Shown: one piece after another, positions 402-8,872 of the stretch
How positions within the stretch are numbered: the stretch's first letter is position 1
Layout of the letters: every line of letters begins with the position of its first letter
DNA from: Candidatus Heimdallarchaeota archaeon
GTDB taxonomy: Archaea; Asgardarchaeota; Heimdallarchaeia; Heimdallarchaeales; Heimdallarchaeaceae
DNA: 11,168 nt
Direction of reading: 5' to 3'
NCBI GenBank assembly: GCA_016839945.1
Contig: JAEOTE010000050.1
Location: 1 to 11,168 of the forward strand
Translations under genes and position numbers: made by a program
Notes under the pieces: model-generated
Database searches by the model: none
The model's input: the letters and a program-made list of their open reading frames with translations, nothing else
What the model was told of the DNA's origin: nothing

Positions 402-523
402 AATAACACCATCTTTTTCTCTTACAAATATGATTCTTTATGATAATCCTTAAACATTGTGCTAAAAAATTTTTTTTGACTAATGCTAAAACTTAATTTT
501 ATAAAATCTAAATTTTCTTGAGA

Positions 524-1297
524 ATGATGAAAAGTGGCTATAGGGGAACTATCTTAATAACTGCTCCTGGAAGCGGAATAGGAAAAAGTATTGTAGAGAA
601 TCTTTTATTGCAAAACTACAAAATTCTAGCAATTGGTGGAGAAAATAGTAAAAAGTATGTAAAAAAGCTATATCCACAGAATAAGAACATAGACTTTCTA
701 GATTGTGATTATTCATCAGAGGAGAGCGTTGTTAAAACCTTCGAAAAATTGCGTAAATTAACACCAAAAATAGATGGAATGATTCATTTAGCAGGAGGTA
801 GTTTAGTTAGTAAGAAAATTGAAGATTTAAGTTTCAAAGATTACAGAAGAGTTATGTCTCTTAATCTAGATTCTTCTTTCTTAATCAGTCGAGAAACTTT
901 CAAATGGATGAAAGAAACCGGAGGAGGAAATATAATCCTATTTGGTTCAACAACTGGATTAAGACCTTCAAATAAAAAACTACCCTATGGTGTTGCTAAA
1001 GCTGGAATACACGCAATGGTTTTATCAATGGCACTTGAAGGATCAGAGTATAAAATAATAACTAATGGGATAGCTCCTGGATACGTTCTTACAGATAGAC
1101 ATGTTGATGAAATCAAAGAAAAAGCTTTGAAGTCAAATGAAAAATTTGATGATATTTTACTTAAAATAAATGAAAAAAATCCTCTTAAACAATCACTTGA
1201 ACCTCAAGAAATCTTTCCACTAATTGAACTTCTTCTTGAAACAAAACATATTCAGGGACAAATAATACGAATAGATTCAGGACAGATTCTTGGATAA
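524..1297 (+). CDS. Short-chain dehydrogenase/reductase (FabG-like SDR)
   Basis: Rossmann motif ITAPGSGIG (variant of TGxxxGIG), catalytic Ser region FGST, YGVAK (YxxxK), NGIAPG, and C-terminal GQIIRIDSG. The track starts at TTG 518. ATG 524 or 527 is more likely given the TATA-like TTTATAAA at 498-505. Substrate unknown. Confidence 0.9.
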   Translation: MMKSGYRGTILITAPGSGIGKSIVENLLLQNYKILAIGGENSKKYVKKLYPQNKNIDFLDCDYSSEESVVKTFEKLRKLTPKIDGMIHLAGGSLVSKKIEDLSFKDYRRVMSLNLDSSFLISRETFKWMKETGGGNIILFGSTTGLRPSNKKLPYGVAKAGIHAMVLSMALEGSEYKIITNGIAPGYVLTDRHVDEIKEKALKSNEKFDDILLKINEKNPLKQSLEPQEIFPLIELLLETKHIQGQIIRIDSGQILG

Positions 1298-1300
1298 ATT

Positions 1301-2212
1301 TTATTTGGGATTTCTTCCACATACTGGACATGACAATCCATATTTGAAGAAAGTTTCATGGTCTTTTTTGCATTCTAATTCCTCTTCATCGAATATTTGT
1401 CTACCAGTAAGTTCTTCTATTCGTTCTTTGAATTCATCTCGATTCAACCATTCATTATCTATCATTTCTCTTGTATAGGGGGCAAAAACAAGATAAGAGA
1501 AAAGAATAGGTAACTCTCCTTCCTTTGCATCTTCATCTTGGTAATTATCTTTACTTTCTTCTAGAAGTTCAGTAATAACGCGAAGTATTTTTAACATATC
1601 TCTTGTGTTAAACCTGTAAATAACACCAGGTAGAATATTGAAATGAGATAATTTCAAAGGATTCAGCCAGTTAGTGTACCAATTTTTTATTTCTTCAGTT
1701 TCTTCGGTAACTAGAACTCGATCCTTATTCATCATAGCTGCATAATGAGATAAAATACCCCTAATTTTTAGTAAATTAAAGAAAGTAAATTCTTTGTGTG
1801 GAGAAGCAAAACCAACATCTTGAAGACCATCATATATTCTTCGATATTCAGTGTAATATACTTCAGGAACACGAAAAACTTTTTGAGTTATTTTTCTACC
1901 TTTCTCATTATATCCAATTAAATTCTCAGTTTCGAGTACATCAACTTCTTTTGATTGTAATATCTTCAAATTGTGATAAACTGAACTTAGATGCATATTA
2001 AGAACTGTAGCAATATCTGCTGCAGTAATTCCTATTATTTCATTACCATCAATACTCACATAGGTTCTTTGAGCAAACATTGCATCAAGGATTATAGCCC
2101 AACAATCAATAGCTGTTGTATATCTCCTGTCTTGAGCTAGTTTGAAGATTCTATCCATATACCAGTTGGATTCTTCTAGCTCTTCGACATCTGCTTCTAT
2201 TTTAGAGGTCAT
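1301..2212 (-). CDS. Putative winged-HTH (ArsR-like) transcriptional regulator with C-terminal Zn-binding motif
   Basis: ~300-aa ORF with HTH-like ITAADIATVLNMHLSSVYHNLKIL followed by a wing-like GRKITQKVFRV, and C-terminal C-x3-H-x9-C-x2-C (CKKDH...CPVCG). ATG 2212 preferred over TTG 2221 because the minus-strand TATA box begins 28 nt upstream. Convergent with the SDR, 3-nt gap. Confidence 0.65.
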   Translation of the reverse strand: MTSKIEADVEELEESNWYMDRIFKLAQDRRYTTAIDCWAIILDAMFAQRTYVSIDGNEIIGITAADIATVLNMHLSSVYHNLKILQSKEVDVLETENLIGYNEKGRKITQKVFRVPEVYYTEYRRIYDGLQDVGFASPHKEFTFFNLLKIRGILSHYAAMMNKDRVLVTEETEEIKNWYTNWLNPLKLSHFNILPGVIYRFNTRDMLKILRVITELLEESKDNYQDEDAKEGELPILFSYLVFAPYTREMIDNEWLNRDEFKERIEELTGRQIFDEEELECKKDHETFFKYGLSCPVCGRNPK

Positions 2213-2230
2213 TGGTTGCAATCCTTGAGT

Positions 2231-2627: not shown

Positions 2628-3539
2628 ATGAGATTCCCTTGTGAGTTTATAGCATCGACTTTTTTACCTGGTTTGAGAATCAGGATTGCACATCAATTAA
2701 AGGAAAGAGGAAAGTCGCAAAACGCGATTTCAATACTTTTAGGAGTGAAACAACCAGTAATTGCGTCTTATCTTCAGAAAACGATTTCAGATACAGGTGA
2801 CAAAAAATTTAATCATCATCTTGATGCTCTATCAGAAACCATATCAAATATGCTTTTGTCTCAAGAGAAATTAGAGGACACAATGAGAACTATTTGTACT
2901 AAATGTAAATCTTTACGTGTAAGGGGACCTATATGCTCCTTTCATAAATCAATACTACCAGAAATTGCTGACTATGATGATTGTGATATCTGTTCCGGTT
3001 TTGATAGTCTTCCTTCCTTGGAGAAGAGATCACAAGTCCTCTTATCTTTAAAGGAAATATTCGCTGAATTGGAAAAAATTGAAGGGTTCTATGATTGGAT
3101 TCCAGAGATAGGATCACAATTAGCTTCTTGTGAAGATGATGCAAAGGAACTAGATGACGTAGCTAGTTTTCCTGGTAGAATAATCAAAGTAAAGGGAAAT
3201 ATAATAACAGTGAGTCCTCCTGAATTTGGTTCTTCAAAAACAATGTCTTCACTCTTACTTTGGATAAGAAAATCCCAACCTGAAACAAAATGGATTATAG
3301 GAATCAAGAACAAACCAAAGCTAGAGAAGATTCTGAAAAATATAAACATTAGATTCCAAGAAATAAATGAACTTGATAAGAAATGGGACGAGTGTTTAGC
3401 AGAAATAAGAAAAACTGAAAATATTACTGAGATAAAAGGAATACTCGATAAAGGAAGCTTAGGATATGAATCTATTGCCTATCTGTTTGCTAATAATGAA
3501 TTGGACCTACTTAACTTAATAAAACAAATTTCAAAGTAG
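2628..3539 (+). CDS. thiR: ThiR-type transcriptional regulator (N-terminal HTH + Cys/His linker + ThiN thiamine-phosphate-synthase-like domain)
   Basis: N-terminus MRFPCE..FLPGLR..IA..L...G.SQ..I..LLGV.QP.I..YL (archaeal HTH), Cys/His cluster CTKC..C..H..CDIC, and ThiN-like motifs IPEIGS, DVASFPGRI, PPEFGSS, DKGSLGYE. Located directly upstream of a thiamine ABC transporter. Confidence 0.85.
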   Translation: MRFPCEFIASTFLPGLRIRIAHQLKERGKSQNAISILLGVKQPVIASYLQKTISDTGDKKFNHHLDALSETISNMLLSQEKLEDTMRTICTKCKSLRVRGPICSFHKSILPEIADYDDCDICSGFDSLPSLEKRSQVLLSLKEIFAELEKIEGFYDWIPEIGSQLASCEDDAKELDDVASFPGRIIKVKGNIITVSPPEFGSSKTMSSLLLWIRKSQPETKWIIGIKNKPKLEKILKNINIRFQEINELDKKWDECLAEIRKTENITEIKGILDKGSLGYESIAYLFANNELDLLNLIKQISK

Positions 3540-3542
3540 AAT

Positions 3543-3557
3543 TATAGGCCCCCTATA
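3543..3557. promoter_or_regulatory. Candidate ThiR operator upstream of thiB
   Basis: Perfect inverted repeat TATAGG-CCC-CCTATA in the 67-bp thiR-thiB spacer. GC-rich core stands out in AT-rich DNA. TATA-like TTTAAAT follows at 3572-3578. Confidence 0.65.
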
Positions 3558-3606
3558 TAGTAATGCTAAGATTTAAATTCATTTTTGCTATAAAATTAAT
3601 GATAAT

Positions 3607-4824
3607 ATGAAAAAATTGTGGATTATGAGTGTAGTATTTGGTCTACTGCTTTTTTCTTGTTTCTATGAAATTAATGTGTTCACAATTAACGCGGATAATT
3701 ATGAACTAGTTATTTATACATATGAGTCTCTATTAGCAGATCCAGGTTATGACTTTGTGGAGGGATTTGCTAATCATAGTGGAATTGCTAAAGAAGACAT
3801 TCATCTTGTTCTTCTCGAAGATGCAAATTCTATTGTTACACAAGCAGCTTTAGAAAAAAATAATCCAGTTGCAGATGTTTTGATAGGATTAGATAATGTA
3901 CTAATTCACAAAGCAAAAGAAGAAGGGATTCTCGAACCTTACAATTCACCTGAATTGGTTAATGTCTCCAGCGACCTTATATCTAATTTAGATCCAATGA
4001 AACACATTCTTCCCTATGATTATGGAATAATTGCTTTATGGTATGATAACAGTAGAATAAACTCAACATCAAATCCTGAATTAGATACTCTAAAATTACA
4101 AGATATAATTGATGAGAATCTTGATGAGATTCTAATAGTTGAGGATCCAACACTTAGTTCTCCAGGACTAGGTTTTCTACTTTGGACCATAGCAGTATAT
4201 GGTGATCCATCAGTAAATTTTGATGGTCTACTAAAAGATGATTGGAGAAATTGGTGGAAATCAGCATCAAAAAATCTTCGAATTGCACCAAGCTGGGGAG
4301 CTGCTTTTGACATTTATTACACTGAAGAAGAAAACCGTCCAATGATGGTTTCTTATGGAACAAGTCCAGCGTATGATGTTTGTCACCCACTTTGGGGAGT
4401 AGGATCAGGTAGTGATCCACCCTCTACTGCAATTGTCTCTCATGAAAATGGTACTGAAAATGCTTGGTTACAAATAGAAGGACTTGGACTAGTTAAGAAT
4501 GCTCCTAATCAAGCAAATGCACAATCGTTTATAGATTGGTTCCTTAGTGCTGAACTTCAAGATAACATACCAACAAATAACTGGATGTATCCAGCGAATG
4601 TACATGCAAACATCTCAAGTTGTTTTATGGATTCTGCGATTAATCCTGCTGATGTAAATATCTTGAATGATCTCATTACACCTACTATGTTGGAAGAAAA
4701 TCTGGATATGTGGAAGAATGATTGGGAAACTGAAATTGCTTCTTTCAGCTCAATATTTCTAATAATACTAACATTGAGTTTCTCAGCAATAACATACATA
4801 TTCCTGCGAAAAAAAAGAGAATAG
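3607..4824 (+). CDS. thiB: Thiamine ABC transporter substrate-binding protein (ThiB/TbpA)
   Basis: ThiB-type motifs YTYES, ADVLIGLDN, PYDYG, SSPGLGFLLWT, MVSYGTSPAY, QIEG, NWMYP. N-terminal signal peptide; C-terminal hydrophobic helix plus RKKRE. Confidence 0.9.
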   Translation: MKKLWIMSVVFGLLLFSCFYEINVFTINADNYELVIYTYESLLADPGYDFVEGFANHSGIAKEDIHLVLLEDANSIVTQAALEKNNPVADVLIGLDNVLIHKAKEEGILEPYNSPELVNVSSDLISNLDPMKHILPYDYGIIALWYDNSRINSTSNPELDTLKLQDIIDENLDEILIVEDPTLSSPGLGFLLWTIAVYGDPSVNFDGLLKDDWRNWWKSASKNLRIAPSWGAAFDIYYTEEENRPMMVSYGTSPAYDVCHPLWGVGSGSDPPSTAIVSHENGTENAWLQIEGLGLVKNAPNQANAQSFIDWFLSAELQDNIPTNNWMYPANVHANISSCFMDSAINPADVNILNDLITPTMLEENLDMWKNDWETEIASFSSIFLIILTLSFSAITYIFLRKKRE

Positions 4825-4848: not shown

Positions 4849-6597
4849 ATGATGTCAAGAACTGTTAGGAAGGAAACAAATATAGAAGAAATTGCTAATA
4901 AATTCATAATCATTTTAGCTATTATTGCTTTAGGTTCTTTCCTATTATCTCTTTTTTATGTTCCATTGATACAAATTCTGCGATTTGCTTTCTCATCAGA
5001 ATCAAAATTTACATTTGCGATATTTTCATCTACAATAACAGATACTCTTAATCTAAAATTCATCGGATTCACTTTCGCTCAAGCTCTGCTATCAACTGTA
5101 ATTTGTTTATTCATTGGTTTACCCGCAGGATTTTTCTTCGCTAAATATGAATTTAAAGGTAAAAAGCTTGTTCTGAATCTTTTAACAATTCCTTTTGTAC
5201 TCCCTCCTATCGTTGTCTTACTTGGTTTTATTGTCTCTTATGGAGAAGGGGGATGGATAAATTCTATTTGGAAAGGAATGACAGGAACAGATAACGTTCT
5301 CATAAGTATTTTTGGAACATTCGAAGGAATAGTTTTAGCTCATATTTTTTACAATTTATCTGTAATCATAAGAATGACAATACCTGCATGGCAAAGTCTT
5401 GATTTAGAGCAAGTGGAAGTTTCAAGGACACTAGGAGCTAGTGAATGGAAGATTTTTTGGAAAATTATTTTTCCTCAAATTGTTAATTATCTAATTTCTT
5501 CTGCTCTATTAGTTTTCATTTACACATTTAACAGCTTTGCAATAGTGCTTTATCTGGGTGAAGTAAGGTTTCAGACTCTAGAGGTGAGAATATTCAAAAT
5601 GATGAAAGCATCTCTTAATTTTTCAGGAGGAGCTTCACTTGCTTTTCTTCAACTAATTTTGAATACTATAATCATTATATTGTACTTACTTTTTGAGAGA
5701 AAAACGAGACAGATGGCTATTGGAAAAGAGAGAGGTCTTCAGAAAGAAAAAATATCATTCTCTAGATATAATTGGAAGAAGAATCTCTCAATAATAGGGT
5801 TAATCTTATTTATGTTGATTATAGGCGTTTTCACATTTGCTCCAATTCTTGCTGTAATAATAGTTTCATTCACTCCGTTTTCATCAGAAGTATCTCCCTT
5901 CTTTGGGTATATGCAGCTGTTTTCATTCGAATATAGTCCTCTTCTAAATAATTCTCCTCTAAGGTTGTTACTGAATACTTTACTTTTTGCTTTTGCGGCA
6001 ACACTAATAACTTTGACTCTTTCTTTGATGATTGTTTTTGTTCTCAAGAATAGATATCAGAGTTTAAAGAAATATCAAAGATCAATATCTGAAAGTTTTA
6101 TTTCTTATATGATCATTCTACCAATGGCAACTTCATCAATAACTCTTGCTTTGGGATTATTCCTACTCTTCAACAATACTTCTTTGTATCTTAATGCTGT
6201 GTGGTTTTTTATAATTATGGCACATGTTTTAATTAGTGTACCATTTGCAACCAGATCAATAATGGCAGCTTATAACAGAATAGATGTTGAATTATTAAAC
6301 GTAGCTTCTACGTTAGGAGCTTCAAGACTACGGGTGTTCAGAAAAATAGAGTTACCTCTTATCTTGAGAGGAATAATTGTTGGTGGAATCTTCTCATTTG
6401 CTATTAGTTTAGGGGAATTTGGTGCAACAAACTTTTTAGTAAGAGGAGCATATGGAACTTTATCAATTGGTATATCTAAATTACTCCTGACTCAAACTTT
6501 GCAATTGCCAGCTACTATGGCAAGTATCTTGATAATTGTAACCATAATATGTTTCTTAGCAATACAAAAACTTGGAGATGTCGAATTAAAGGTGTAA
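4849..6597 (+). CDS. thiP: Thiamine ABC transporter permease (ThiP, duplicated TM domain)
   Basis: 582-aa hydrophobic protein with two EAA-like loops (EVSRTLGAS, NVASTLGAS), FTFAQALLST, PFVLP, AHIFYN, SLGEFGAT. GAGG at 4843-4846 may favour the second ATG (4852). Confidence 0.9.
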   Translation: MMSRTVRKETNIEEIANKFIIILAIIALGSFLLSLFYVPLIQILRFAFSSESKFTFAIFSSTITDTLNLKFIGFTFAQALLSTVICLFIGLPAGFFFAKYEFKGKKLVLNLLTIPFVLPPIVVLLGFIVSYGEGGWINSIWKGMTGTDNVLISIFGTFEGIVLAHIFYNLSVIIRMTIPAWQSLDLEQVEVSRTLGASEWKIFWKIIFPQIVNYLISSALLVFIYTFNSFAIVLYLGEVRFQTLEVRIFKMMKASLNFSGGASLAFLQLILNTIIIILYLLFERKTRQMAIGKERGLQKEKISFSRYNWKKNLSIIGLILFMLIIGVFTFAPILAVIIVSFTPFSSEVSPFFGYMQLFSFEYSPLLNNSPLRLLLNTLLFAFAATLITLTLSLMIVFVLKNRYQSLKKYQRSISESFISYMIILPMATSSITLALGLFLLFNNTSLYLNAVWFFIIMAHVLISVPFATRSIMAAYNRIDVELLNVASTLGASRLRVFRKIELPLILRGIIVGGIFSFAISLGEFGATNFLVRGAYGTLSIGISKLLLTQTLQLPATMASILIIVTIICFLAIQKLGDVELKV

Positions 6598-6599
6598 AT

Positions 6600-7688
6600 A
6601 TGACAAAATTAGAACTAAAAGAAATATCCATGAAATATGAAAGAAAATACATTCTAGAAGATCTAATTCTAGAGGTGAACCATGGAGAGCTTTTGGTTCT
6701 ATTAGGTGAAAGTGGTTGCGGGAAGACTTCTCTCTTAAAGATAATTGCAGGGATTATCAAACCTGAAAAAGGAGATATTCTAATGGATGGTGAGAACATC
6801 ACACATCTTGCTCCACAGAAAAGAAAAATTGGATACGTTCCTCAAGCACAAGTTTTATTTCCTCACATGAAAATCAGGGAAAATATTTCTTTTGGTCTTG
6901 AAGCTCATAGATTTGACAAACAAGAAATAGAAGATAAAATCAAATGGGTAGCAGAACTGACTCAAATAGAAGATTTACTAGATAGATATCCAAGTGAGAT
7001 TAGTGGAGGACAAAAACAACGTGTTGCACTAGGTAGAGCTATGGCAATAGAACCACGTCTTCTGCTTTTGGATGAACCTCTATCATCAATTGATGCTTCT
7101 GGAAGAGAATCGCTAGCACTTACTATAAGAAGAATTCAAAAAGAGACAGAAACAACAACCCTTTATGTCACACACAATCAGGAAGAAGCTCGATTAATCT
7201 GCGACAGAGTAGCTTTAATGTATGATGGTAAAATACAACAAATTGGCAAAGTAATAGAGATTGATAAAAATCCTTTGAATCTTATAATTGCAAAGATTAT
7301 GGGGTCTGTTAACATTTGGTCAATAGAATTTATAGAGAAAAAAGATAAACATTCAATTATAACAACTCCAATAGGAAGCTTTCAACTACCTTATGAAATC
7401 ATAAAACATAAGCCAACAGGAATAAAAATCCCAGCAGAGGTTATTGAACTTTCATTTGATATAGGAAGCACAGACCACCGTTCGGATACATCAAATTTTA
7501 TTTTGAATGGAAAGATAAAATCCATTGTTGAAAAAGATGAAGAAACTCATCGAATTATTATAGATTTATCAGAAACAGTTTCTGAATATATTAAAGTTGA
7601 TTGTAAAAAAGAACTCATTAAAAAGGAACTTAAACCAAACCAAGAAGTTATTTTACATATTGATCCCTTGGAGGTTATTTTAATTTGA
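6600..7688 (+). CDS. thiQ: ABC transporter ATP-binding subunit of the thiamine importer (ThiQ/PotA-like, C-terminal TOBE-like extension)
   Basis: Walker A GESGCGKT, Q-loop VPQ, signature ISGGQKQR, Walker B LLLLDEP, H-loop VTH. Start moved from 6549 to ATG 6600, 2 nt after the thiP stop, with GGTG at 6591-6594. Confidence 0.9.
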   Translation: MTKLELKEISMKYERKYILEDLILEVNHGELLVLLGESGCGKTSLLKIIAGIIKPEKGDILMDGENITHLAPQKRKIGYVPQAQVLFPHMKIRENISFGLEAHRFDKQEIEDKIKWVAELTQIEDLLDRYPSEISGGQKQRVALGRAMAIEPRLLLLDEPLSSIDASGRESLALTIRRIQKETETTTLYVTHNQEEARLICDRVALMYDGKIQQIGKVIEIDKNPLNLIIAKIMGSVNIWSIEFIEKKDKHSIITTPIGSFQLPYEIIKHKPTGIKIPAEVIELSFDIGSTDHRSDTSNFILNGKIKSIVEKDEETHRIIIDLSETVSEYIKVDCKKELIKKELKPNQEVILHIDPLEVILI

Positions 7689-8500
7689 TATCTGATTCAA
7701 TTAAGAATGAGATAAATTTAGCAATAATTGAGAAGTTTAATCTTAATCAAGAACCTAGTTGGAACTATATTGATAGAGGATATATTAACGAGAAATTTGA
7801 GATTGCAGGAGAAAATAAAGAACCTCTTGCAATATGTAAGATATTTACAGAGGAAGAAAAAATATATCGAGCTGAACAAAGATATAAACGAGAGGAATTT
7901 GCTTTAGAAATATATGGAGGTAAAATAGCTCCTGATATTATCTGGAAAAACGATTCTGAGATTATTGTATATAGTTATATTGTTGGACAAGAGCTTCTTC
8001 ACCTTGAGATTAATAATGAAACAGAAACGAAAATAAAGAAAGTAATTGATCATATTCATAAAATTGCAAGAAACGATATTAAAGTAAGAAAAGAAGAAGT
8101 AACAAACTTCTATCAAGAAATAATTAGTGAATACAAAAAATCTGAAATTGGATACCCATCAAAACTGATTGAAGAATTAGAAGATCTTACTATCAAACAA
8201 AAAGAAGTATTAGACCAATTCCAAGAGAAACTAACATATGTTCATGGAGATTTAATTCCTCCAAATTTCATATTCGATGGAAAACAATTTATTCTAATTG
8301 ATTGGGAGTTTTTCAGACCTGAGTTAACTTTTTTTGATTATAAATACTTTAACTACTACGCTAAAGCTCACAAAATGCCAATAGAGCTGAAAATAGATCA
8401 GACGGTTCAAAATTTATATTTTAGATTGATTGATGTTTTGGAGAAACTCTGGAGATATGGATATTTACAAAGGAAAAACGAAATCCACTATGAAATTTAA
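7685..8500 (+). CDS. APH/choline-kinase-fold phosphotransferase; candidate thiamine kinase (ThiK-like)
   Basis: GYIN loop, ICKIF (ATP-binding Lys), REEFAL, Brenner motif HGDLIPPN, and LIDWEF. TTG start overlaps the thiQ stop (TTGA) with GGAGGT at 7670-7675. The fold is confident; the substrate is inferred from context only. Confidence 0.8.
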   Translation: MISDSIKNEINLAIIEKFNLNQEPSWNYIDRGYINEKFEIAGENKEPLAICKIFTEEEKIYRAEQRYKREEFALEIYGGKIAPDIIWKNDSEIIVYSYIVGQELLHLEINNETETKIKKVIDHIHKIARNDIKVRKEEVTNFYQEIISEYKKSEIGYPSKLIEELEDLTIKQKEVLDQFQEKLTYVHGDLIPPNFIFDGKQFILIDWEFFRPELTFFDYKYFNYYAKAHKMPIELKIDQTVQNLYFRLIDVLEKLWRYGYLQRKNEIHYEI

Positions 8501-8716
8501 AAAAGAAAATGAAGATATAAGAAGAATATGATTTTGAAAATTGATTTAAACCCATCCATAAGTTTAAAAGCGCACTAAATAGCTTAAGAATAGCGTATAA
8601 TAGTTGAGTTCTAAATTGAGTAGCAGTAGTATAGTAATAGTAATCGAGTTAGATGAATATCTTCTTCTTCTTATTTAGTTATAAATTATTATATTCAAAA
8701 AATAAAGGTGAAAATA

Positions 8717-8872
8717 TTGGGATATAGACGATATGATGACAGTCCAAGAGAAATGCATGACATAAAATGCTCAGAATGCGGACAAGATGCACAAGTGCCT
8801 TTCAAGCCTGATGGTGAAAGACCAGTGTACTGCAGAGATTGTTATCAAAAACAAAGAAGATCAAGATATTAG
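8717..8872 (+). CDS. Small CxxC-x17-CxxC zinc-ribbon domain protein (51 aa)
   Basis: Not in the ORF track. MGYRRYDDSPREMHDIKCSECGQDAQVPFKPDGERPVYCRDCYQKQRRSRY*, with CSEC-x17-CRDC and the family's VPFKP..RPVYC signature. SD AGGTGA at 8706-8711 before TTG. Confidence 0.9.
   Translation: MGYRRYDDSPREMHDIKCSECGQDAQVPFKPDGERPVYCRDCYQKQRRSRY

Follow-up and report, generated by a model that had tools for sequence, protein, structure and literature searches.

A predicted thiamine kinase of the APH/choline-kinase fold encoded beside a thiamine importer in Heimdallarchaeaceae

Results

Organization of the thi Locus

The window, the whole stretch of 11,168 nucleotides that was analyzed, comes from a genome of the archaeal family Heimdallarchaeaceae and carries the gene order thiR-thiB-thiP-thiQ-kinase, with the kinase gene last. 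The features of the locus are given below by position in the window and strand.

2589–2607, no strand: second, weaker operator-like site before thiR (matrix score 14.1 bits, fourth-ranked site genome-wide)
2628–3539, plus strand: thiR, regulator that joins an N-terminal DNA-binding region to a ThiN-like sensor domain (PF10120, 110 bits)
3541–3559, no strand: candidate ThiR operator, palindrome TATAG-N5-CTATA, before thiB (matrix)
3607–4824, plus strand: thiB, thiamine-binding protein whose C-terminus carries a hydrophobic anchor (TIGR01254; 2QRY)
4849–6597, plus strand: thiP, fused two-domain ABC permease (HMM)
6600–7688, plus strand: thiQ, ABC ATPase, likely start ATG at 6600 rather than 6549 (HMM)
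7670–7675, plus strand: SD-like GGAGGT within the last thiQ codons, 9 nt before the kinase start
7685–7688, plus strand: TTGA start/stop overlap of 4 nt, kinase TTG and thiQ TGA
7685–8500, plus strand: candidate thiamine kinase of the APH/choline-kinase fold, 271 aa (ORF, Pfam, alignment, AlphaFold model)
7838–7840, plus strand: Lys52, invariant ATP-binding lysine, paired with Glu70 by fold analogy (alignment; role by analogy with the fold)
8243–8266, plus strand: Brenner phosphotransferase motif HGDLIPPN, residues 187–194, with Asp189 as presumed catalytic base and Asn194 as presumed metal ligand
8297–8308, plus strand: IDWE metal-binding motif (Asp206, Glu208), residues 205–208, of the choline-kinase/ThiK type (alignment)

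The ThiB protein passes TIGR01254 (180.6, cut-off 93.4), and its best match in the PDB is E. coli TbpA (2QRY, E = 3.5e-30), far above iron binders and with the TbpA motif blocks kept. In the ThiN domain of ThiR, the Arg of GRII is retained and GSSKT replaces the GASEH/GASDH of ThiN structures. The palindrome before thiB recurs across the class. A matrix built from 26 sites in other genomes, the window's own site being outside the training set, ranks the 3541–3559 site first in 3.0 Mb (24.3 bits, the next at 15.1). The locus thus combines an HTH-ThiN regulator with a conserved palindrome upstream, as in a ThiR regulon; the palindrome is probably the ThiR operator, through which ThiR would control the operon, and the weaker site before thiR possibly serves autoregulation. 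The matrix scan found no operator before the other APH genes of the source genome, and no TPP riboswitch was found with Rfam. No terminators came from a scan with a bacterial model, which is unsuited to archaea.

The arrangement resembles the ThiR regulon described for archaea, which includes thiBPQ (Rodionov et al. 2017, J Bacteriol, PMID 27920295; as cited in PMC10746257 and PMC12029414). The two have in common the HTH-ThiN regulator, the importer, the palindromic operator, and the lack of a TPP riboswitch, and the present locus differs in the addition of a terminal kinase.

Divergent from thiR lies an ORF of 306 aa (window 1301–2221, minus strand) with a C-terminal CPVC and no Pfam or NCBIfam match, and it keeps this orientation in the same-genus loci examined that reach that far (57–72% identity). 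An SDR gene (window 518–1297, plus strand) is kept with it in a Sua5-SDR-orf306-thiR block; an SDR, OarX, has been proposed to act in thiamin salvage (PMC11223231).

The Kinase Gene and Its Junction with thiQ

The kinase ORF starts with TTG, has zero internal stops, and is intact. The sequence-only reading had noted the 4-nt TTGA overlap with thiQ and a strong SD inside thiQ, and both are present as described. The overlap frame is retained at 23/23 thiQ/kinase junctions examined in relatives, which as kin are not independent. An SD-like word precedes 16 of the 17 non-ATG kinase starts at such junctions versus 0 of the 6 ATG starts, and the thiQ Glu codon that helps to form it is GAG in 18/18 junctions (again from kin that are not independent), against a genome-wide GAG share of 20.6%. 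Overlap, SD, and codon choice together exceed chance. The pattern of overlap and SD fits a kinase whose translation would be coupled to that of thiQ; a search of the assembly for the 16S 3′ end found none.

In two relatives (L003 in G001 and L019 in G021), the thiQ stop is TAA and the first codon of the conserved N-terminus of the kinase is CTA or TTA (then ATC), each preceded by a strong SD-like word, and in two further relatives the kinase start is CTG. These codons suggest non-canonical initiation, which may proceed through coupling. The G001 database protein P0027 is called about 50 aa short. Downstream of the kinase gene, the window holds a small zinc-finger-type ORF with a CxxC-x17-CxxC pattern (8708–8872, plus strand, about 45–54 aa). 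In some relatives only (L054:6152-7144, L057:5473-6696, L058:5450-6673), the next gene after the kinase gene, in the same orientation and no more than about 40 nt away, encodes a Zn-dependent alcohol dehydrogenase; the window lacks this gene.

Fold, Catalytic Residues, and Family Membership

The assignment of an APH/choline-kinase fold with intact HGDLxxxN and IDWE motifs, made earlier from the sequence, is upheld by profile and model alike. The protein passes the Pfam models Choline_kinase (PF01633; 37.7 bits, cut-off 29) and APH (PF01636; 32.2 bits, cut-off 23.2), and its AlphaFold model (pLDDT 93, pTM 0.90) matches such enzymes. The top structural match of the model is the Plasmodium choline kinase 6YXS (Z 19.2, rmsd 3.7, 264 aligned), APH(3′)-Ia matches with Z 18.3, and LicA, at Z 17.5, gives the best TM-score (0.65). 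Invariant in 26 homologues are K52, E70, H187-G-D189, N194, and D206-W-E208, plus Y221, Y224, Y225, and W256; the Lys/Glu pair, HxDxxxxN, and DxE of the bilobed superfamily are therefore all in place. The roles of Asp189 and Asn194 we take from what is known of APH and choline kinases. The model and its structural matches point to an active-looking small-molecule kinase, with a fold that does not indicate the substrate.

A PDB search with the single kinase sequence gave zero matches, a search with the family profile gave only a weak match (corramycin phosphotransferase), and the ESM Atlas matches are generic APH/choline-kinase clusters only. The family is small and closed, with 13 representatives at E ≤ 1e-30 followed by a drop to about 60 bits, and its database homologues carry the names Heimdallarchaeota or Heimdallarchaeaceae. 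The NCBI automatic name for homologues is of the aminoglycoside phosphotransferase type. The expectation that this would be the sole annotation did not hold; some homologues bear the JGI label "thiamine kinase-like enzyme," which we regard as a generic family label and not as evidence. Two close homologues, P0005 (L200), labelled "Thorarchaeota" yet placed by GTDB in the window's genus, and P0250, labelled "Zixibacteria," seem to be Heimdallarchaeia sequences that were given a wrong label or bin.

Conservation of the Linkage in Heimdallarchaeaceae

The kinase gene directly follows thiQ in 24/26 kinase-bearing genomes of the family, including two single-contig genomes; these are all 20 kinase-bearing genomes of the same genus plus G065, G109, G120, and G232. 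It is detached from the locus only in G043 and G180 (genus g10), with no operator there. Five further same-genus genomes have no kinase match, and in these the contig ends within the operon or there is no thiB match. In GCA_054001415.1 the locus is rearranged, and the kinase orthologue forms a divergon with thiB behind one 216-aa ORF, with a 17.6-bit operator between the kinase side and thiB. The recurrent linkage to thi genes that had been proposed as a check is therefore found, both within the family and in other Heimdallarchaeia families.

APH-family genes number about 10 per genome. Given this base rate, chance does not account for kinase genes recurring beside thi genes in four or five layouts, although kin are not independent. 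The closest homologues from outside that were checked (P0043, P0044, P0046) have unrelated gene neighborhoods, so generic APH proteins do not share the linkage to thi genes.

The Thiamine Pathway in the Source Genome and Its Relatives

The source genome encodes nine TPP-enzyme domains and a ThiL scoring 216 bits (cut-off 184). ThiL is found in 28/31 family genomes, over the cut-off in 27, and TPK over its cut-off in 0/31; the weak TPK_catalytic matches in the family that were tested proved to be MptE. ThiC is found in 0/83 genomes of the class, and ThiD, ThiE, and Thi4 were not found in G000, G065, and G109. The ThiM-like match in G000 is an NAD(P)HX dehydratase, and no true ThiM was found. 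The sole ThiN domain found is that of ThiR, without the His of GASxH, which we take to be catalytic in ThiN. The source genome is 88% complete, and the single-contig relatives G065 and G109 show the same gene absences. The gene thiL (L045, G000:C62:69809-70720) lies directly upstream of the enolase gene on the same strand.

The established routes of thiamine salvage are TPK, or ThiK followed by ThiL (bioRxiv 10.1101/2020.03.04.976639; PMC3020362), and the ThiL of P. aeruginosa does not phosphorylate thiamine (bioRxiv 10.1101/2020.03.04.976639). ThiL together with a thiamine importer and no TPK, the gene complement of ThiK-type salvage, is what the source genome shows. The proposal that the kinase fills a thiamine-to-TMP gap thus addresses a real gap, with ThiL present and TPK and the de novo genes not found.

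Among 301 Asgard genomes, TPK occurs in only 4, always beside thiB and divergent from it. These four genomes have no ThiL match at E ≤ 1e-42, the best matches in the two checked scoring 95 and 76 bits. The slot beside thiB is accordingly held by TPK in genomes without a clear ThiL and, among ThiL-bearing families, by an APH-fold kinase in three. The neighbor of thiB/thiP in f22 and f24 is a gene of the AIRS fold that is probably thiL (L117:11183-12184, L119:4426-5517).

Comparison with ThiK and TPK

ThiK of E. coli and Salmonella (YcfN, b1106; EC 2.7.1.89) is, like the kinase described here, a protein of about 270 aa with the APH/choline-kinase fold and a DWE motif, and it would share with it the proposed reaction and the partnership with ThiL in a two-step salvage. 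However, the two are only about 16% identical in a profile alignment, the kinase has HGDL where ThiK has HMDV, and E. coli thiK sits between lpoB and nagZ and not in a thi operon, whereas the kinase gene lies inside a ThiR-type import operon. Against the ThiK HMM (TIGR02721/NF007620), the kinase scores 17.9 bits and its best relative 66.5, with a cut-off of 299.45. An HHalign probability of 54 makes its similarity to ThiK no better than that to other APH-fold enzymes. In a tree, E. coli ThiK takes a long branch without a supported position, and a constraint forcing it together with the kinase family is not rejected (p-AU 0.745). By HMM, then, the kinase is not a member of the ThiK family, and its relation to ThiK is either one of analogy or one of very remote homology.

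TPK (ThiN of Bacillus; TIGR01378) takes the equivalent place next to thiBPQ, in gene order and in metabolism, in the four Asgard genomes, but with an unrelated fold and a one-step pyrophosphorylation that is found there without a clear ThiL. The salvage set given for haloarchaea comprises ThiDN, ThiE, ThiL, ThiM, and TenA and names no thiamine kinase (PMC12029414). In keeping with the statement in the sequence-only reading that no ThiK-type enzyme is known to have been characterized in archaea, no characterized archaeal thiamine kinase was found in the literature searched, the key ThiR papers being outside that scope.

Discussion

Proposed Function of the Kinase

We consider it likely that the kinase is an ATP-dependent thiamine kinase that converts thiamine to TMP and feeds ThiL in a thiamine auxotroph. 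The reaction would be Mg-ATP-dependent (thiamine + ATP → TMP + ADP). When thiamine phosphates are scarce, ThiR would leave the TATAG-N5-CTATA operator of a presumably co-transcribed set of genes, ThiBPQ would bring thiamine in, the translationally coupled kinase would phosphorylate the hydroxyethyl OH and so trap the vitamin, and the unlinked ThiL would convert TMP to TPP. By analogy with the fold, K52 and E70 would hold ATP, N194 and D206 would hold Mg, and D189 would activate the hydroxyethyl OH; more speculatively, W207, F209, Y221, Y224, Y225, and W256 could form an aromatic pocket that, helped by the conserved E253, receives the thiazolium cation. ThiR binding, the kinase substrate, and the activity are thus predictions drawn from gene content and fold.

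Linkage and operator would fit equally well if the enzyme acted on a thiamine congener or damaged vitamer (oxythiamine, oxidized or ring-opened thiamine) imported by ThiBPQ, in proofreading or detoxification, or if it transferred pyrophosphate or acted on TMP, and kinase-less families do manage with thiBPQ and ThiL. However, the APH/choline-kinase fold transfers single γ-phosphates, ThiL already covers the step from TMP to TPP, and the exchange of the slot with TPK points to plain thiamine activation. A phosphorylated antivitamin would moreover pass to ThiL, which accepts oxythiamine monophosphate (bioRxiv 10.1101/2020.03.04.976639), so that phosphorylation would not detoxify it. We regard this group of readings as improbable.

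Similarity in profile and structure could instead suggest a kinase of the choline/ethanolamine type that acts on lipid head groups or osmolytes and is carried as a passenger in the operon. The Pfam Choline_kinase score exceeds that of APH, choline kinases (LicA 4R77/4R7B; Plasmodium 6YXS; PF01633) are the best structural matches (Z 17.5–19.2) and have DWE in common with the kinase, the Plasmodium enzyme is top by structure and LicA by TM-score, and the profile of the related Hodarchaeales kinases matches LicA with E = 1.7e-15. A LicA-type enzyme, however, would bring the W-x-x-W cage and a lic context, whereas the LEKLW of the kinase has one Trp and its context is thi. In an indirect alignment via the Hodarchaeales profile, W256 aligns with the second C-terminal Trp of LicA and the conserved Glu253 takes the place of the first. 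Identity to the choline kinases is 14–19%. The importer is moreover a TbpA-type thiamine binder, no lic or lipid genes adjoin the kinase gene in Heimdallarchaeaceae, the thi linkage survives several rearrangements, and ThiK itself shares the fold, all of which makes the passenger reading quite improbable.

The thiamine kinase assignment also has to be set against a hydroxyethylthiazole or HMP kinase that would substitute for ThiM or ThiD, with the ThiN domain of ThiR doing the coupling, an alternative that the sequence-only reading had allowed. ThiM and ThiD were indeed not found, the thiazole alcohol bears the same hydroxyethyl group, and ThiR retains the ThiN Arg; yet coupling requires HMP-PP and a TMP synthase, neither ThiD nor ThiE was found, the only ThiN domain lacks the GASxH His, and the importer serves intact thiamine. 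Since nothing downstream here could use the products, this alternative is disfavored and very improbable. The aminoglycoside or antibiotic phosphotransferase of the NCBI automatic names, for which PF01636 and APH structures at Z 16–18 could be cited, is scarcely credible for a protein that matches no NCBIfam APH equivalog model and has been retained vertically in a vitamin operon across Heimdallarchaeaceae.

The kinase would then carry out a known reaction by means of a new, lineage-specific family, which we put forward as a well-supported functional prediction. The literature covered names no enzyme for archaeal salvage of free thiamine, and the kinase offers a concrete, testable candidate family. 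Heimdallarchaeia, a class often placed nearest to eukaryotes, are thiamine auxotrophs (ThiC in 0/83 genomes) that would use a kinase and ThiL, not the eukaryotic TPK, which has consequences for culture media (B1 supply) and for models of syntrophy. A candidate ThiR operator is also supplied for the lineage, and the misleading label "aminoglycoside phosphotransferase" is corrected. As the chemistry is already known from E. coli ThiK, the advance is a moderate one.

Kinases beside thi Genes in Other Heimdallarchaeia

Two other Heimdallarchaeia families have distantly related kinases (20–27% identity) that adjoin thiB or thiR in other layouts. A remote homologue in Hodarchaeales (HHalign probability 99, 20% identity) adjoins thiB, thiQ, or thiR in 16/16 informative genomes. 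There are two layouts: the kinase gene either precedes thiB or lies past thiQ in convergent orientation. In the loci inspected, it points away from thiR. In f6, a kinase gene (HHalign probability 92) directly precedes thiB in 8/8 informative genomes, of genus g15, and at loci L086-L089 and L100-L104 thiB, straight after the APH kinase gene, is without adjacent thiP or thiQ. The Hodarchaeales and f6 kinase genes have no operator directly upstream. The three proteins have approximate lengths of 270 aa (Heimdallarchaeaceae), 310 aa (Hodarchaeales), and 355 aa (f6).

Each thi-linked kinase clade is fully supported in the tree, and constraints holding the three clades together (p-AU 0.58) or two of them (0.74) are not rejected. 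We raise only tentatively the scenario that APH-fold enzymes became thiamine kinases in Heimdallarchaeia on as many as three independent occasions, with no ThiK orthologue among them, and that a sister Asgard lineage replaced kinase and ThiL by a eukaryote-like TPK. If this were true, the kinases would be the first of their type in archaea to act on thiamine, and one salvage step near the eukaryotic root would have been filled repeatedly by non-orthologous enzymes.

Families without the Kinase

In f11 (76 genomes, probably Thorarchaeia), ThiB is found in 63/76 and ThiL in 65/76, with no ThiC and no TPK; inspection of 10 thi loci showed no kinase, and the other APH genes examined have no operator in front of them. 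Families f3, f4, and f7 have thiBPQ without an adjacent kinase, and in several Asgard families thiBPQ and ThiL occur with no kinase gene alongside. The genes beside thiB in kinase-less families encode not kinases but a methyltransferase, a Ras-type GTPase, a GNAT, or unknown membrane proteins. The kinase step is thus not universal, and uptake of TMP or TPP may suffice in f11, f3, f4, and f7. Importers of the ThiBPQ type also transport phosphorylated forms (PMC12029414), so TMP/TPP may sustain the kinase-less lineages, or an unlinked enzyme may serve them. As these lineages manage, the kinase probably extends the range of usable substrates and is not a strict requirement. Where thiR and thiB diverge at the f11 loci L120-L129, the interval separating them holds another palindrome, TATAAC-N3/4-GTT(G/A)TA, which is a candidate lineage-specific operator.
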